Virus record (IMG/VR): IMGVR_UViG_3300044732_000442 | Span: 52,116 to 116,115 of that record | Strand: one strand, 5' to 3' | Source of the DNA: a virus | Length of the DNA stretch: 64,000 nucleotides | Shown here: positions 10,438-59,460 of the stretch, in pieces | How the letters are laid out: each line of letters opens with the position of its first letter | How positions within the stretch are numbered: the first letter of the stretch is position 1 | Position numbers and translations under genes: made by a program | The notes under the pieces: model-generated | What the model saw: only the letters and a program-made list of their open reading frames with translations | What the model was told of the DNA's origin: nothing | The model's database searches: none

Positions 10438-10466
10438 TTGCAATACAAATCATTATATGCTATAAT
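10438..10466 (+). promoter_or_regulatory. sigma70-type promoter for tilS
   Basis: TTGCAA-17-TATAAT with extended TG. Confidence 0.6.
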
Positions 10467-14907: not shown

Positions 14908-15272
14908 TTAAGAGCATTCACTCTAGTAGTCCATTCTTAACTGTATCAGGTGGTAATCCAGGTTCTACTTATATTGGTAATTTTAATGGTACTGGTGTGG
15001 GTAATATGCGATATAACCCTAACAGTCAGAACACAGAAGTATATGATGGTAGTACTTGGATTATTCTCTCGGCACATCACGCTACTATAAACTTAAGTGA
15101 TGAAGCAGTTGGTTTGTTACAGTGGGCACGACAAAAGCGTGATGAGGAACTTGAGATAGAAAAATTAGTACTAACTAATTCAACTATCAAAGACCTCGTT
15201 ATGCAAATTAAAGACAAACAAGAACAAATTAAAGTAGTTCAAACATTGATAAAAGAAGAAGTAAAAGTTTAA
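14904..15272 (+). CDS. Hypothetical protein
   Basis: ORF overlapping its neighbours; C-terminal coiled coil. Confidence 0.6.
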   Translation: MIKSIHSSSPFLTVSGGNPGSTYIGNFNGTGVGNMRYNPNSQNTEVYDGSTWIILSAHHATINLSDEAVGLLQWARQKRDEELEIEKLVLTNSTIKDLVMQIKDKQEQIKVVQTLIKEEVKV

Positions 15273-16846
15273 TGGAACAAGATAATCTATCACAAAAACA
15301 AAACCCAGATTGGGCATTGTTCTTACCCGCAGTCAGTAGTTTTTATATCTCTGGCTTGGGTAAACAACGTAAAGGTGAAGAGTACTTTGATCCTGCACGT
15401 ATCCCTGCTCAATTCAACGGTGATGTAGAGAAACTAAACTTTCTTAATAGTAAAGAAGGTCTCTATTATTACAAATGGGGCTTGTACAGTGCTGGTCATG
15501 CTAACTTAGATACTACTAAAGACGATCCTAGTGAATCAATCATTAGAGAACGTGAAGAAGGTACATTTATGTTAGGTGACTCTGGTGGATTTCAAATTCT
15601 TAAAGGTCAATGGCCAGCTGATTGGAAAGATCCTAATTGCCCTAAAGCTATGATTAAGCGTAAAGCAGTATTGAACTGGATGGACACGTACATGGACTAT
15701 GGCATGGTCCTTGATATTCCTTCACAATCAATAACTACTTTTAATATGAAGGATAAGAATGGTGTAAGTCTTCATGGTATCAGTACTATCCAAGAAGCAA
15801 TTACTGCTACCCATATTAACAATGAATACTTTATCAACAATCGTTCGGGCAAATGTAAGTTCTTAAATGTATTACAAGGTCGTACACATACCCAGTCAGA
15901 TGAGTGGTACGATGAAATGAAGAAGTATTGTGATCCAAAACAATACCCAGACAATCACTTTAATGGTTGGGCTTTCGGTGGACAGAATAAGATTGATGTA
16001 CACTTGATGTTAACAAGAATGATTGATATTATCCATGATGGGTTATTAGTAGAAGGTAAGCATGATTTAATTCACTGTTTGGGTACAAGTATTTTAGAAT
16101 ATGCTGTATTGTTTACTGATATTCAACGTGCTATTCGCAAGTATCACAACCCTAAACTTAAAATTACATTTGATTGTGCAAGCCCATTCTATAGTGCGGC
16201 TAAGGGTTTAGCATATTTCAATACTAATATTGAGCATAACAAGAAATGGTCATACAGTATGGAAAAGACTGCTGAAAAGAAAAGTTATGCTAATGACACC
16301 CGTAAATATAGGGATGCTGTATTAGCTGAAGGAATCCATAAACTCTTTACAGATAGTCCAGTAACTGATAAACTAGTGCTTAAGGACTTGTGTTATCGTG
16401 GTCAAGGGTTCTTAGGACAACATGGTAAAGAAACTAAGACCAGTTGGGATACATTAAGTTATACATTGCTTCAAAGTCATAATGTATGGATGCACATGAA
16501 TGCCGTACAAGAGGCTAACCGTCAATATGATATAGGTATTGTACCTAAGATGTTGATGAATGAACAATTTGAACGTGTATTGTTTAAAGATGTTATTGAC
16601 GAAATTTTCAGTAAGAAAACTAAACAGGAAGCAATTGATTTAATTGATGCTAACAGTAGATTATGGATGCAGTTTCAATCAGGTAGTCAGGGTATTAGTG
16701 GTAAACGAACAGTTAATGCATTGAGTAAGTTTGAAGAACTATTTGAAGTTCAGAATGAAATAGAGTTTGAAGAAGTAATAGAAGATAGTGATGATGCTAT
16801 GAATGAAGTATTACATGAAAAGGTAGATTTAGATGATGACAATTAA
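15272..16846 (+). CDS. dpdA: DpdA-like DNA 7-deazaguanine transglycosylase (TGT fold)
   Basis: TGT motifs GDSGGFQ, VLDIP, NVLQG, GWAFGG, HCLG, TFDCASP; linked to folE/queD/queE. Confidence 0.8.
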   Translation: MEQDNLSQKQNPDWALFLPAVSSFYISGLGKQRKGEEYFDPARIPAQFNGDVEKLNFLNSKEGLYYYKWGLYSAGHANLDTTKDDPSESIIREREEGTFMLGDSGGFQILKGQWPADWKDPNCPKAMIKRKAVLNWMDTYMDYGMVLDIPSQSITTFNMKDKNGVSLHGISTIQEAITATHINNEYFINNRSGKCKFLNVLQGRTHTQSDEWYDEMKKYCDPKQYPDNHFNGWAFGGQNKIDVHLMLTRMIDIIHDGLLVEGKHDLIHCLGTSILEYAVLFTDIQRAIRKYHNPKLKITFDCASPFYSAAKGLAYFNTNIEHNKKWSYSMEKTAEKKSYANDTRKYRDAVLAEGIHKLFTDSPVTDKLVLKDLCYRGQGFLGQHGKETKTSWDTLSYTLLQSHNVWMHMNAVQEANRQYDIGIVPKMLMNEQFERVLFKDVIDEIFSKKTKQEAIDLIDANSRLWMQFQSGSQGISGKRTVNALSKFEELFEVQNEIEFEEVIEDSDDAMNEVLHEKVDLDDDN

Positions 16847-17060
16847 TCCATCACTTACACTGAAGTCAACAATGACCGGTGATACTCAGGAATCTGTTAT
16901 TACCTTTACCGGTGGTTCAGATGAGATGTTACGTATAGCAAAAGACGGGTTTTATATACGTGGTAAACGGGTACCTCAAGATGACAAAGAAGCTGAAGTA
17001 GTGTATAATACATTTCATCAGTGGTTAACATGGGCAACACTTAATAGGGATTATAAATGA
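16833..17060 (+). CDS. Hypothetical protein
   Basis: ORF coupled to its neighbours. Confidence 0.55.
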   Translation: MMTINPSLTLKSTMTGDTQESVITFTGGSDEMLRIAKDGFYIRGKRVPQDDKEAEVVYNTFHQWLTWATLNRDYK

Positions 17061-17512
17061 TAGAACAACATGAACATGCAATGCACGAAAAACGTGTACG
17101 TATTAAACAACATGCATTACGTACAATCTTTGTACGTTTTCAAAAAGAAGGTATTCATAAATACCCAGCGGCAGCAACAGATCCAGCACTTGCTACAGGT
17201 GATGAGTATGATGTTAGCTTTTTAGGATCTCCACATAGACACATCTTTCATTTTGAAGTGTCTATTGAAGTATTTCACAACGACCGTGATATTGAGTTTA
17301 TTCAGTTTAAAAGATGGTTAGAGAAACAATATTCTCAAGGCATACTAGAATTGAATTACAAAAGTTGTGAAATGATTAGTGATGACCTCTATGATGTTAT
17401 TGCAACTCGGTATCCAGATCGTAATATCGCTATTCAAGTATCGGAAGATAATGAGAATGGTGCTACTATTGTCTATAACACAAACAAACCTTATCAACAA
17501 CTAGCTATTTAA
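17057..17512 (+). CDS. dpdL: QueD-paralog T-fold protein, DpdL-like putative CDG decarboxylase
   Basis: LGSPHRHIF (LxxxHRHxF in place of the QueD CxxxHGH), SCEM and VSEDNENGA motifs. Confidence 0.65.
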   Translation: MIEQHEHAMHEKRVRIKQHALRTIFVRFQKEGIHKYPAAATDPALATGDEYDVSFLGSPHRHIFHFEVSIEVFHNDRDIEFIQFKRWLEKQYSQGILELNYKSCEMISDDLYDVIATRYPDRNIAIQVSEDNENGATIVYNTNKPYQQLAI

Positions 17513-20096: not shown

Positions 20097-20127
20097 TAAA
20101 TACTTGTGTTACACAACGGTAACACAA
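20097..20127 (+). promoter_or_regulatory. Late-type TAAATA box followed by a perfect 9-bp hairpin before folE
   Basis: TAAATA at 20097-20102; TTGTGTTAC-ACAACG-GTAACACAA. Confidence 0.55.
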
Positions 20128-20162
20128 TATCAAAACAAAACCATCACAAAGGAAGGTTATCT

Positions 20163-20846
20163 ATGAGTTATAATAAAACAAAAACCGATCCAGTACTGGG
20201 TCTACAAGTACACGAACACTTAGTTAGAATGGGTGTTGAGACTCCTACAATCAAGTCTTTGGTTCCGGATCGTAAAGATAAGATTGCGGTCATTGAGCCG
20301 TTATTTGCCGAGATTATGAAAACACTTGGTTTAGATTTATCTGATGATAGTCTTATTGAAACACCTAAACGTGTTGCCAAGATGTATGTCAATGAAATAT
20401 TTTGGGGTCTCGATTATGAAGCATTCCCTAAATGTACAACAGTTGACAATAAGATGCAATACAACGAAATGGTTGTAGAGCGTAATGTTAATGTTCAATC
20501 TAACTGCGAACATCATTTTGTAGTCATTGATGGATTGGCTACAGTAGCTTATGTCCCTAAACAAAAGGTGTTAGGGCTTAGTAAGATAAACCGTATTGTA
20601 GAATATTTTAGCAAAAGACCTCAAATTCAAGAGAGGTTAACAGAGCAAATTTTTCACACCTTACAGTTCATCCTTGATACAGAAGATGTTGCAGTTATGA
20701 TTGACGCACAACACTATTGTGTAAAATCACGCGGCGTAGAAGATACAGGTAGTAGCACTGTTACTTGTCGTTTAGGTGGTGGTTTCAAAACTGATCCATC
20801 AGCACGACAAGAGTTCTTACAAATTGCTAACAAAGGTTGCAAATAA
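20163..20846 (+). CDS. folE: GTP cyclohydrolase I
   Basis: [34 protein letters not shown] and HYCVKSRGV motifs. Confidence 0.97.
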
Positions 20847-21082
20847 TGGGCTTTCGTAAACAAATGGACTATAACAGTGTTCATCATCAAATCTATATGA
20901 GTGGTGTAGAACTACATAGTAACTATAATGACGGATTTAATCAATTTGAAATCAAAAAAGACTTACATCGGATCAAATGGCTATTGGATGAGATTATAGC
21001 CGATAGTCCTACATTTGCCGGTGAAGATGAATTCTTAAAAGAACACGAACAAACTAAGATGTGGAGAACTCTTTCAAAATGA
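20846..21082 (+). CDS. Hypothetical protein
   Basis: ORF coupled to folE. Confidence 0.55.
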   Translation: MGFRKQMDYNSVHHQIYMSGVELHSNYNDGFNQFEIKKDLHRIKWLLDEIIADSPTFAGEDEFLKEHEQTKMWRTLSK

Positions 21083-21552
21083 TTTTCAATCACATTAAAG
21101 AACTAAAAGCACAAGGTAAAAAGATTGGTATCACTTTCAGTACATTTGACTTGCTACATGCAGGGCATGTTGCTATGTTAAGTGAAGCTAAGAATCATTG
21201 TGACTATTTGATTTGTGGGTTGCAAACTGATCCTACTATTGATAGACCTGACACTAAGAATAAACCCATTCAAAGTATTGTAGAGCGACAGATTCAACTT
21301 GCGGCTTGTCGTTATGTTGATGAAGTTGTTGTCTATCAAACTGAACAGGACCTTATTGACCTATTACTTATTCTACCATTAGATGTTCGCATTTTGGGTG
21401 TAGAGTATGCAGATAAAGAGTTTACTGGAAGATGGGAGGGCGGTGAGCGTGGCATTGAACTTGTGTTCAATGGTCGTGACCATAGTTTCAGTAGCAGTAG
21501 TTTACGTAAACGGGTAGCTGATGCCCAAATCATTAACACTCTTAATAAATAA
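21079..21552 (+). CDS. Glycerol-3-phosphate cytidylyltransferase-like (TagD-like)
   Basis: STFDLLHAGH, GLQTDP, RYVDEV and RDHSFSSSSLR motifs. Confidence 0.85.
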   Translation: MIFNHIKELKAQGKKIGITFSTFDLLHAGHVAMLSEAKNHCDYLICGLQTDPTIDRPDTKNKPIQSIVERQIQLAACRYVDEVVVYQTEQDLIDLLLILPLDVRILGVEYADKEFTGRWEGGERGIELVFNGRDHSFSSSSLRKRVADAQIINTLNK

Positions 21553-21556
21553 GATA

Positions 21557-21621
21557 ACCGGTCTCTTTGGGCTCATCCCGGTATACAAACTCTGCGTCCT
21601 ATGCTATAATATAACATAGGA
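21557..21621 (+). promoter_or_regulatory. preQ1-I-like riboswitch candidate with SD-sequestering hairpin before queD
   Basis: ACCGG/CCGGT stem, loop ending CATC, A-rich tail ATACAAACTC; TCCTATG/CATAGGA hairpin covers AGGA of the SD. Confidence 0.45.
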
Positions 21622-21628
21622 GAACACA

Positions 21629-22111
21629 ATGGCAAACAAAAAATTCTTTTCAACAAAAACATACAGACAAATAGGTCCTGTCGCATATCGTCAATGGCGT
21701 GCTGACAGTCATTGTAACTTAATTCATGGCTATGCTATGAGTTTTCACTTTGAATTTGAAGCAGATACATTAGATGCCCGTAACTGGGTAACTGACTTCG
21801 GTGGATTACGACCACTTAAAGATAAACTAGAAGAATGGTTTGACCATACATTATTAGTCGCACAAGATGACCCAATGCGTGAACATCTATTAGAACTAGG
21901 TCGTTTAAAACTAGCAAAGATTACAGAAGTAGAACGTACTGGTTGTGAGGGTATTGCTGACTTCTTATATGAATACATTAACACAATCTTTTTACCTAAC
22001 TGCGGTAGTGAAGAAGCAAAACGTGTATGGTGCTGTAGAGTAGAGGTCCGTGAGACTGATAGTAACATGGCAGGACGAGGTGGTCACAGGGAAGACGGAG
22101 AGTTTGCATAA
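21629..22111 (+). CDS. queD: 6-carboxy-5,6,7,8-tetrahydropterin synthase
   Basis: HCNLIHGY, WVTDFG, FDHTLL, GCEG and VRET motifs. Confidence 0.9.
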   Translation: MANKKFFSTKTYRQIGPVAYRQWRADSHCNLIHGYAMSFHFEFEADTLDARNWVTDFGGLRPLKDKLEEWFDHTLLVAQDDPMREHLLELGRLKLAKITEVERTGCEGIADFLYEYINTIFLPNCGSEEAKRVWCCRVEVRETDSNMAGRGGHREDGEFA

Positions 22112-22959
22112 TGGCACAACTAAAAATTTCAGAACTATTCTATAGTATACAAGGAGAAGGCCGATATATGGGAGTTCCCTCCGTGTTCCTAAGAACATTT
22201 GGTTGTAACTTTACATGTGCAGGCTTTGGCATGCCTAAAGGTGAAGTAAGTAAAGAAGTAGAAGATATTGCCGCAAGGGTTCACTATTATGATGATTATA
22301 AAAAACTACCGTTGGTCAGTACAGGGTGTGACAGTTATGCTTCATGGGATCCTAGGTTTAAGCATCTTAGTCCTGTTCGCCCCACCGATGATATTGTTGA
22401 CGACATTATGGCTATGCTTCCTCACAATCGCTGGATGGATGAGCACCTTGTCATCACTGGCGGTGAACCTCTTCTTGGATGGCAAAGAGCGTATCCAGAA
22501 CTGCTTTCAAACGAGAAGATGAGGTCATTGAAAGAGATTACATTTGAAACTAATGGTACACAAGAACTAAGTCAAGACCTCTCTATCTATCTACAACAAT
22601 GGAAGATTAACAGAGAAAAGAATGCACTTACATTTAGTGTTAGCCCTAAACTAAGTATCAGTGGTGAGAAGTGGGAAGAAGCAATTTGTCCTAGTATTAT
22701 TCGTCAATATGAAAGTATTGGCTTTGTATATTTAAAGTTTGTTATCGCTACTAAAGAAGATGCATTAGAAGCTGATAAGGCAGTACAAGAGTTTCGTAAT
22801 GGTGGATTTAGAGGCCCTGTATACTTTATGCCATGTGGTGGTGTAGAAAGTATCTATAGTTTGAATGCTAAGAATGTTGCTATTGAAGCAATGAATCGTG
22901 GTTATCGTTATAGTGATAGACTTCAAGTCCCACTGTTTAAAAACGAGTGGGGCACATAA
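22111..22959 (+). CDS. queE: 7-carboxy-7-deazaguanine synthase (radical SAM)
   Basis: ELFYSIQGEG, FLRTFGCNFTC...CDS, ITGGEP, ETNGT and SVSPKL motifs. Confidence 0.95.
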   Translation: MAQLKISELFYSIQGEGRYMGVPSVFLRTFGCNFTCAGFGMPKGEVSKEVEDIAARVHYYDDYKKLPLVSTGCDSYASWDPRFKHLSPVRPTDDIVDDIMAMLPHNRWMDEHLVITGGEPLLGWQRAYPELLSNEKMRSLKEITFETNGTQELSQDLSIYLQQWKINREKNALTFSVSPKLSISGEKWEEAICPSIIRQYESIGFVYLKFVIATKEDALEADKAVQEFRNGGFRGPVYFMPCGGVESIYSLNAKNVAIEAMNRGYRYSDRLQVPLFKNEWGT

Positions 22960-27889: not shown

Positions 27890-28915
27890 TTGACAAATCA
27901 ATCTATCAAACGCATCGGCTTTGCTTGTAAATGGGCAGAAATCAACAGTAAAGGCGAGATTGTCTCTGCTGAAGGCCTTAACACAGGCGGTACAACTCAA
28001 GCATGGGCAAAACGTAATAACCGTAGTGTAGTGGAAGAAAAGATTATGGATGTTGCTAAACGCAATATTATGAATACTCACGCATTGGTTAAGCGTGTTG
28101 CTACATTAGAACCCGAATTGCGTATGGTTCGTCTTACTAGTGATATGCTTAGTTTTTATACTATGGATGGATACAAAGAATTTTGGCAAAGTACTGATGT
28201 ACAAAATAGTTTACAACGATGGTTTGCACCCATCGGTGAGACAGCTAGAGCAAATGATGTACGTCTTTCATTTCATCCCGATCAATTTGTAGTTTTAGCA
28301 AGCGACCGTGATGAGGTAGTAAATAAGAGTATAGAGGAGTTTGAATATCATGCAGATATGGCCAGATGGATGGGGTTCGGTAGAAATTTCCAGGATTTTA
28401 AGATTAATATACACATATCTGGGCGTAGAGGCCCACAAGGAATCAGAGATGTTTACGGAAGACTCAGCCCCGAAGCAAGAAACACACTAACACTAGAAAA
28501 TGAGGAATACACACATGGACTTACAGACTGCTTATCATTATCTGATCTCGTACCTACAGTCATGGACATACACCATAATTGGATACGTGAAGGAGAATAT
28601 ATTTCCGCAAATGATGACCGGGTTAAGATGGTTATTGATAGTTGGCGCGGTGTTAGGCCTACTTTACATTACTCCGTCAGCCGTGAAGATATACTTGTCG
28701 GACATCCCGGATCACAATTACCCTCTCATGGTGCGTTGATTGAAGCAGGACATAGTAAACAGAAGCTTCGGGCACATTCCGACTACTATTGGAACGATGC
28801 TGTGAACGATTGGGCATTGACATTTATTGATAACTTTGATATGATGTGTGAATCAAAGGCAAAGAATCTTGCCAGCTTTAAACTATACGAAAGATACAAA
28901 TGTTTGAAAAATTAA
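27890..28915 (+). CDS. uvsE: UV-damage endonuclease
   Basis: RIGFACK, RLSFHPDQF, NIHISG, LENEE, DIHH, HYS, AHSD and ESKAK motifs. Start is uncertain (TTG 27890 or ATG 27848). Confidence 0.92.
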   Translation: MTNQSIKRIGFACKWAEINSKGEIVSAEGLNTGGTTQAWAKRNNRSVVEEKIMDVAKRNIMNTHALVKRVATLEPELRMVRLTSDMLSFYTMDGYKEFWQSTDVQNSLQRWFAPIGETARANDVRLSFHPDQFVVLASDRDEVVNKSIEEFEYHADMARWMGFGRNFQDFKINIHISGRRGPQGIRDVYGRLSPEARNTLTLENEEYTHGLTDCLSLSDLVPTVMDIHHNWIREGEYISANDDRVKMVIDSWRGVRPTLHYSVSREDILVGHPGSQLPSHGALIEAGHSKQKLRAHSDYYWNDAVNDWALTFIDNFDMMCESKAKNLASFKLYERYKCLKN

Positions 28916-29929: not shown

Positions 29930-29958
29930 TTGACAATAAATGGAAAAGGTGCTATAAT
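29930..29958 (+). promoter_or_regulatory. Conserved early sigma70 promoter repeat
   Basis: TTGACAATAAATGG...TATAAT, 17-nt spacer. Confidence 0.8.
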
Positions 29959-54238: not shown

Positions 54239-54316
54239 GTATAATATCTCAAATAATATGCTAATTATAGCACCATTAAGTATTTATCGCAAAACATTTT
54301 TAAACAAGGAAACAAT

Positions 54317-57256: not shown

Positions 57257-57322
57257 AATTTGACATTAAATGGCATTTGTGCTATAATATATTCTTAGAC
57301 AGTTAAATAAAGGACTTACAAA

Positions 57323-59396: not shown

Positions 59397-59460
59397 CTGC
59401 CTTTAGCCTTGTGTTTAATTCAATTGTATGTTATAATAGTCTATCAGATAGGAGATAGTA

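Follow-up and report, generated by a model that had tools for sequence, protein, structure and literature searches.

A conserved pseudoknot in the queD leader of uncultured phages and its putative role as an activating riboswitch

DNA modifications of the 7-deazaguanine type shield phage DNA from restriction, and riboswitches are rare in phages; our literature search revealed no riboswitch linked to 7-deazaguanine DNA modification of phages, and the phage deazaguanine papers that it returned make no use of the word riboswitch. The locus described here raises the question of whether such a link exists in the leader of queD, a gene of the 7-deazaguanine pathway, on a 116-kb IMG/VR virus contig (IMGVR_UViG_3300044732_000442; CheckV completeness 34%) of which we analyzed bases 52116-116115, a stretch of 64,000 nucleotides that we refer to as the window. 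Related contigs reach ~350 kb and are rated complete, so the source phage is an uncultured jumbo phage. The element in question occupies the 76-nt gap between the stop codon of an upstream open reading frame (ORF), ending at 21552, and the queD start codon at 21629, where an original prediction made from the sequence alone had placed a preQ1-I-like riboswitch variant acting by feedback on queD and queE. This gap almost certainly holds a conserved RNA pseudoknot that controls queD, and we lean towards viewing this 43-nt structure as the sensor of a translational riboswitch of the ON type.

The pseudoknot and its comparative support

The fold is an H-type pseudoknot of 43 nt (21557-21599) composed of a 5-bp helix P1 and a helix P2 of 4 + 2 bp around a U/C mismatch. 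Its parts are as follows, in window coordinates:

21557-21561, + strand: P1 5' strand ACCGG, partner of 21578-21582
21562-21568, + strand: loop L1 (UCUCUUU), which opens with a conserved N-C-U and varies in length among phages
21569-21575, + strand: P2 5' strand with GGGC core, U21573 mismatch, and CA extension
21576-21577, + strand: loop L2 (UC), with C21577 directly 5' of the P1 3' strand
21578-21582, + strand: P1 3' strand CCGGT, partner of 21557-21561
21583-21592, + strand: loop L3 (AUACAAACUC), A/U-rich, 10 nt, with A21589, U21591, and C21592 invariant; its DNA overlaps a -35-like hexamer
21593-21599, + strand: P2 3' strand with UG extension, C21595 mismatch, and GUCC core

The 5-bp stem around a 16-nt loop (TCTCTTTGGGCTCATC) and the A-rich tail behind it had already been read correctly in the original prediction. 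The TAAATA at 21546-51 that it had counted as part of the motif simply belongs to the 3' end of the upstream ORF and overlaps the stop codon TAA at 21550-52. Its pseudoknot had joined a CUC of the tail to the GGG of the loop; by covariation, the conserved partner of the loop G-run is instead the stretch after UCUGC. The P2 core is thus formed by G21569-C21599, G21570-C21598, G21571-U21597, and C21572-G21596, and beyond the U21573/C21595 mismatch follow C21574-G21594 and A21575-U21593. Several unpaired positions are also constrained: C21577 is invariant in 149 sequences (the preceding base being mostly U, otherwise A or C), C21563 in L1 is nearly invariant and U21564 fully so, and L3 carries conserved A residues at 21585, 21587, and 21589. 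The invariants that resemble a binding pocket are C21577, U21564, A21589, and the G-C pair atop P1.

The single-sequence fold of the leader is ordinary (minimum free energy [MFE] of -13.6 kcal/mol; z = 0.05) and uninformative for a pseudoknot, so that the evidence for the motif is comparative. A first sample comprised the tblastn-confirmed IMG/VR queD loci L001-L080, among which the stem of the leader changes in a compensatory manner (ACCGG/CCGGT, AGCGG/CCGCT, AGAGG/CCTCT). When the leaders were sorted by the bases that follow UCUGC, these bases always proved complementary to a stretch of the loop, with GGGC/GUCC in the window and GGCG/CGCC, GGUG/CACC, GGCU/AGCC, GGAA/UUCC, GAAC/GUUC, GACG/CGUC, ACGAC/GUCGU, or GACAU/AUGUC elsewhere. 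Counted in a fixed register, P2 is 80% paired, compared with 50 +/- 2.7% when partners are permuted among sequences; this test replaced a "best helix anywhere" permutation, which discriminated weakly (4.07 vs 3.85).

In a MAFFT alignment of 102 aptamers, P1 is 99.4% and P2 78% paired, all 4 P2 pairs show compensatory changes, and none of 500 shuffles reached the observed score, while slid registers are only 37-50% paired. For the extended P2 across 149 distinct aptamers, pairing amounts to 91.4% compared with 74.2% in shuffles and 30-48% in slid registers. The covariation among homologous phage queD leaders that the original prediction had proposed as a check is seen in 8 of 11 pairs of these 149 distinct leaders. 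P1 is paired in 97-99% of cells with 3 of its 5 pairs compensatory (AU/UA; GC/CG/UA/AU; CG/AU/UA), all 4 pairs of the P2 core covary with up to six pair types, and A21575-U21593 of the extension occurs as AU (138 sequences) or GC (6 sequences). A change from UCA to UCG in the loop is accompanied by a change from UCUGC to UCCGC (180 vs 7, with zero mixed cases) in at least four sequence backgrounds, which implies that P2 continues past the conserved U/C mismatch by a C-G and an A-U (or G-C) pair. We had treated UCUGC as an unpaired insertion until this covariation appeared in divergent variants, and a tiny hairpin within the loop (YCU with the following purines) was ruled out because the loop is too short for it in several sequences. 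Together, conservation and compensatory changes bear out the earlier claim of a structured cis-regulatory RNA in the queD leader.

The pattern of the conserved core was found on at least 120 viral contigs, nearly always at a distance of 28-40 nt from a downstream queD-like ORF, and the N-termini encoded by these ORFs differ greatly; in the window it occurs once compared with an expectation of 0.00. A covariance model built from the first alignment, R1, was then searched on 240 more loci of three other QueD subfamilies and matched directly upstream of the queD-like gene at ~60 of 80, 78 of 80, and 73 of 80 loci. The QueD-like proteins encoded behind the motif share 27-57% identity with each other. 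R1 has a single match on the window at 58.2 bits (next best, 12.2 bits), and the five complete genomes of related phages (343-357 kb) contain one copy each, a number that rules out a repeated promoter or terminator element. When 185,579 prokaryote species, each represented by one genome, were scanned with a stringent pattern, 7 matches emerged, none of them with P1 or a queD gene, and these scored 11-27 bits with R1 compared with 30-69 bits for the phage copies. R1 detected no copy upstream of queD in the cultured phages ACP17, X1, phiST, PA5oct, and Phosso, which had been chosen for the closest QueD or related pathway genes and of which ACP17, X1, and phiST have no room for a leader before queD. 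A blastn search of the leader against cultured phages gave chance matches only, and the motif was found exclusively in uncultured phage contigs, of which there are hundreds.

A few loci depart from this arrangement. One contig carries a second, degenerate copy (locus L300, 82-130; 37.4 bits) with P1 ACCAG/CUGGU and UUCGC replacing UCUGC, which lies upstream of a gene for an S-adenosylmethionine (SAM) methyltransferase-like protein (309 aa), 1 kb before the canonical queD copy. At locus L149 (4352-4403), the motif precedes a gene other than queD, an uncharacterized 243-aa ORF with a DLGCG motif. The 524,565-base contig IMGVR_UViG_3300027749_002876 contains two queD loci (L012 and L054; 26.6-33.1 kb and 496.6-503.1 kb) with products 97-99% identical to the window protein, a doubling that may reflect a concatemer, a terminal repeat, or a chimeric assembly.

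Platform pairing, probable embedded promoter, and predicted direction of switching

The pseudoknot is followed by the ribosome-binding site of queD:

21597-21621, + strand: hairpin UCCUAUG/CAUAGGA with an 11-nt loop that sequesters the Shine-Dalgarno (SD) sequence; platform MFE -7.9 kcal/mol
21618-21622, + strand: SD sequence AGGAG, 6 nt before the ATG at 21629
21629-22111, + strand: queD-like gene (PTPS fold, 160 aa; PF01242 with E 8.7e-16, TIGR03367 below its cut-off)

The original prediction had rightly described a 7-bp hairpin that buries the SD of queD; its strands (21597-21603 and 21615-21621) cover the AGG of AGGAG. The three bases 21597-21599 belong both to the base of this hairpin and to the P2 3' strand, so that P2 and the SD-sequestering helix are mutually exclusive. 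Comparable pairings recur across the leaders, which we sorted into groups 1 to 4 and variants A and B. The window belongs to group 1, where the helix is UCCUAUG/CAUAGGA; its group-3 counterpart joins UGUCUUC to GGAGACA, and both helices hide the SD. The start-codon region (GAUGGCA, CAAUGGCA, or AAUGGC) is the partner in groups 2 and 4 as well as variant A, the pairing strand being UGUCGUC, UGCCAUUG, or GCCAUU, and in variant B an anti-SD CUCC overlaps the P2 extension as judged by eye. At least five platform designs thus use the P2 3' strand to pair against the SD or the AUG. MFE folding was applied to 170 distinct platforms: The initiation region captures two or more of the four P2 core bases in 79% of them compared with 31% when the 5' part is shuffled, and platform stability is -7.9 kcal/mol compared with -4.0 kcal/mol in shuffles. 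Taking away the P2 strand in the window destabilizes the platform (-7.9 to -3.2 kcal/mol) and makes the SD more accessible (0.17 to 0.42).

The leader combines two general traits of riboswitches, a conserved structured aptamer and mutually exclusive pairing in the platform. To our knowledge, the ligand stabilizes the knot in every known pseudoknot riboswitch, and since the P2 strand is the anti-SD or anti-AUG strand, formation of the knot should open translation. These pairings do not support the feedback (OFF) logic of the original prediction because they predict an exposed ribosome-binding site; provided that the leader is a riboswitch, modeling of the mutually exclusive helices makes the ON direction reasonably likely. 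Without ligand, the hairpin at 21597-21621 would hide the SD of queD. A small molecule with a guanine-like face would stabilize the knot so that P2 takes 21593-21599, overlapping the 5' strand of the hairpin, which would thereby lose three G/C-containing base pairs and open the ribosome-binding site of queD-queE. The adenine-sensing add riboswitch, a translational switch of the ON type, works by the same logic of strand capture in that its bound aptamer takes the strand that otherwise sequesters the ribosome-binding site, though this aptamer is a three-way junction rather than a pseudoknot and the phage ligand is at present a set of candidate compounds.

The platform also contains a promoter that the original prediction had missed, and similar sites lie elsewhere in the window:

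21582-21610, + strand: sigma-70-type promoter with -35 TATACA (21582-87), 17-bp spacer, and extended -10 TGcTATAAT (21602-10)
10458-10466: extended -10 site, which ends 7 nt before an ATG
29950-29958: extended -10 site
54264-54272, - strand: extended -10 site
57280-57288: extended -10 site
59429-59437: extended -10 site

Transcription from the embedded promoter is predicted to start near 21617. TGnTAnnnT follows a -35-like hexamer by 17-18 bp in 97 of 102 distinct group-1 leaders, and the -10 variants of this group retain T1, A2, and T6. Other genes of the window likewise have extended -10 promoters 7-40 nt before their starts (TGnTATAAT, in many cases preceded by TTGACA or TTGCAA at 17 bp), and many genes of the phage seem to be transcribed from host sigma-70 promoters. 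The embedded promoter is probably real, given that it is kept in group 1 and that the same type precedes other window genes. In groups 2 to 4 and the variants, there is no -10 at this position; in variants A and B, a TTGACA-17-TATAAT promoter instead closely precedes the aptamer, which is the usual arrangement of a riboswitch in a 5' untranslated region.

Several observations weigh against an ON-type riboswitch at this locus. Transcripts starting at ~21617 would lack the aptamer, have a free SD, and escape the switch, leaving only read-through RNA from upstream under its control; the promoter therefore suggests that many queD transcripts of this phage are devoid of the aptamer. The folding energies ignore pseudoknot and tertiary terms, and the accessibility of the whole initiation region in group 1, a crude measure, hardly changes (0.65 to 0.61). 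Once the hairpin has opened, a weak helix between UGCUAU (21602-07), which is the extended -10 at the DNA level, and AUGGCA (21629-34) can cover the AUG (-3.2 kcal/mol). Moreover, the platforms amount to only about six effectively independent designs, and a biosynthetic gene switched ON by the product of its own pathway would be unusual; a precursor or signal would suit such a switch better than an end product. Finally, the likeness to preQ1-I draws on topology and a few positions because no Rfam family matches, as set out below.

Comparison with preQ1-I and rival explanations

PreQ1-I riboswitches are exemplified by the B. subtilis queC, T. tengcongensis, C. antarcticum, and E. coli yhhQ leaders. 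They are defined by an H-type pseudoknot in which an A-rich L3 follows P1 and docks in its minor groove, P2 takes up SD bases, and the P1 3' strand directly follows a specificity cytosine, itself preceded by U in type I and by A in types II and III (PMC11625349). A 2024 review of preQ1 riboswitches describes repressive mechanisms only and leaves phages unmentioned (PMC11625349). The phage leader resembles these RNAs in its H-type topology, with both crossing helices backed by compensatory changes, in the 5-bp P1 topped by a G-C pair, in C21577 at the position of the specificity cytosine (mostly preceded by U as in type I), in the A-rich L3 after P1, and in the 7-deazaguanine pathway gene downstream. 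It differs in its longer L1 (3-10 nt), which starts with N-C-U plus 0-7 bases rather than UU, in a longer P2 of 4 + 2 bp with a conserved U/C mismatch, and in an L3 of 10 nt as opposed to 6-8 nt. Furthermore, the phage SD lies 19 nt 3' of P2 instead of within it, P2 competes with a helix that sequesters the SD or AUG, the predicted output is ON, and QueC was not found in the complete phage genomes.

The preQ1-I model RF00522 (gathering score 39 bits), a search with which had been recommended along with the original prediction, gave no match on the window at gathering thresholds, and no match at E up to 10 on 21400-21750 or 21550-21632 or on a shorter variant. Its sole match on the whole 116-kb contig falls at an unrelated site (window 28143-28164, - strand; 12.8 bits, E 0.44) and is most likely due to chance. 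Among 4,227 Rfam families scanned, none reaches its threshold on the window, and preQ1-II (RF01054) and preQ1-III (RF02680) do not appear among the matches listed, even at E up to 10 on the leader. Weak rows for PsrR1, freshwater-2, and others were discarded as far below gathering scores and driven by the SD region. The motif is also absent from Rfam 15, and a literature search of incomplete coverage, which leaves room for an earlier publication, found no description of a queD-associated or phage preQ1-like motif. Of the preQ1-I-like variant originally proposed, the H-type topology, the invariant C before the P1 3' strand, and the A-rich loop have thus stood, but membership in RF00522 has not: The phage motif is preQ1-I-like in design and not a member of preQ1-I as defined by Rfam.

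It is distinctly unlikely that the leader is a divergent but ordinary preQ1-I riboswitch that represses queD-queE as preQ1 or preQ0 accumulates. Such a switch would account for the topology, the 5-bp P1 with its top G-C pair, the U/A/C-C before the P1 3' strand, the A-rich L3, and the que gene downstream, and a weak helix can cover the AUG in group 1 once the P2 strand is taken. Yet RF00522 misses the leader even at its most permissive setting, the SD lies beyond P2 and not inside it, the P2 3' strand opposes the initiation region in at least five designs and thereby predicts ON, and the failure to find QueC in the five complete genomes means that the phage pathway alone stops short of preQ0 and preQ1. 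A protein-binding translational operator, recognized by a phage RNA-binding protein or an enzyme of the pathway with no small molecule being sensed, appears unlikely as well. Phages do use leader pseudoknots and hairpins as protein operators, such as the small autoregulatory pseudoknot of T4 gene 32, which likewise controls translation from an mRNA leader, and covariation proves a structure but not the kind of effector. However, the queD motif differs from the gene 32 pseudoknot in conserved unpaired bases at the helix junction that follow the pattern of a metabolite pocket such as that of preQ1-I, it is kept before the divergent QueD proteins described above in phages of differing gene content, and its mere 43 nt offer little surface outside the knot.

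A switch or structural element that works without any ligand and sets queD translation on polycistronic RNA, whether governed by folding, kinetics, or temperature or acting as a coupling device that ribosomes melt on finishing the upstream ORF, would be in keeping with stop codons right before P1 at many loci (5 nt before P1 in the window) and with the close energies of P2 and the hairpin (-4.8 vs -7.7 kcal/mol). We nevertheless regard it as very unlikely, since variants A and B open their own transcripts, being preceded by a promoter but no ORF, and pairing alone leaves the invariant junction bases unexplained. Conservation at the DNA level only, meaning a sigma-70 promoter with its -35 in the "tail" and its -10 in the "hairpin loop" plus an inverted-repeat operator and no functional RNA, is an extremely improbable explanation. 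It would be compatible with TATACA-17-TGcTATAAT, its conservation in group 1, and the promoters of the same type at other window genes, but groups 2 to 4 and the variants keep P1, P2, and L3 without a -10 there, and the compensatory changes in the crossing helices P1 and P2 have no explanation at the DNA level. The embedded promoter, though probably real, is an addition to the motif and does not explain it.

On balance, the sequence comparisons favor a metabolite-sensing riboswitch as a rather likely reading of the queD leader. More tentatively, and with somewhat less than even confidence, we propose that it represents a new, phage-only riboswitch class of preQ1-I-like build that senses another 7-deazapurine or a pterin (7-carboxy-7-deazaguanine [CDG], 7-deazaguanine [DG], or the QueD substrate) and turns translation ON to tune the synthesis of a DNA-modification precursor during infection. 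If true, hypermodification of phage DNA would for the first time be connected to a riboswitch, and the preQ1-like pseudoknots would gain their first activating member. A 43-nt aptamer that combines a preQ1-I-like pocket with the opposite output and possibly a different ligand would add to what the smallest riboswitch fold is known to do, make the timing of precursor synthesis in jumbo phages more accessible to study, and offer a compact ON-type part for synthetic biology. Its abundance on hundreds of contigs makes the motif testable with synthetic RNA even though the phages are uncultured.

Pathway genes and candidate ligands

The neighborhood of the leader contains the following genes:

15272-16846: gene for a 524-aa protein, found near the que genes in the five complete jumbo phage genomes (48-87% identity)
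17057-17512: second gene for a QueD-fold protein (phrog_17812), function unassigned by family
20106-20846: FolE gene
21061-21552, + strand: cytidylyltransferase-like ORF with stop TAA at 21550-21552
22111-22959, + strand: queE-like radical SAM gene (phrog_2076 "QueE-like" with E 5.9e-52; weak QueE NCBIfam matches)

Family searches upheld the assignment of the two genes behind the leader, whose products are QueD/PTPS-like and QueE-like. The start of the queE-like gene overlaps the queD stop codon (22111), and it is presumably co-translated with queD; glycosyltransferase and epimerase genes lie further downstream. FolE, QueD, and QueE are encoded by these phages. QueC was not found in the five complete related genomes or on the contig, in agreement with the absence noted in the original prediction, and the same applies to Pfam TGT; a YhhQ-type transporter was not found in the five complete genomes.

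The product of the second QueD-fold gene is related to gp040 from the que cluster of Cellulophaga phage phiST (30% identity, E 2e-5) and has closer relatives in PA5oct-like phages, ACP17, and Xanthomonas and Sinorhizobium jumbo phages. DpdL is a proposed CDG decarboxylase of phages that encode DpdA, FolE, QueD, and QueE without QueC, and phiST DNA carries 7-deazaguanine (PMC10516641). The position of gp040 in phiST fits the proposed DpdL, which makes 17057-17512 a candidate gene for a DpdL-type CDG decarboxylase. The 524-aa protein had no match in Pfam (TGT), NCBIfam, PHROGs, or PDB sequence searches; a language-model protein atlas yielded a TGT-like lead (score 0.93, with Pfam TGT on 17% of the cluster), and the protein is possibly a new DNA transglycosylase of the DpdA type. 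With FolE, QueD, and QueE but no QueC, a DpdL-like gene, and this TGT-like lead, the pathway product is likely a DNA base of the CDG or DG type.

What the leader would sense can be narrowed down from both the RNA and the pathway. The invariant C21577 argues for a ligand with a guanine-like face, and phages with FolE, QueD, and QueE but without QueC make a ligand other than preQ1 a fair suspicion. The candidate is probably of the 7-deazaguanine type (CDG, DG, or preQ0) or else a pterin or guanine precursor; CDG, DG, preQ0 or preQ1 of the host, guanine, and a pterin precursor are all possible ligands. At one locus (L092, 10791-11483), the gene after the motif-controlled queD encodes a homologue of queuosine-precursor transporters (Vut_1 with 2.4e-27; TIGR00697 above cut-off), in the order FolE, Bax1-I family gene, motif, queD, and transporter.

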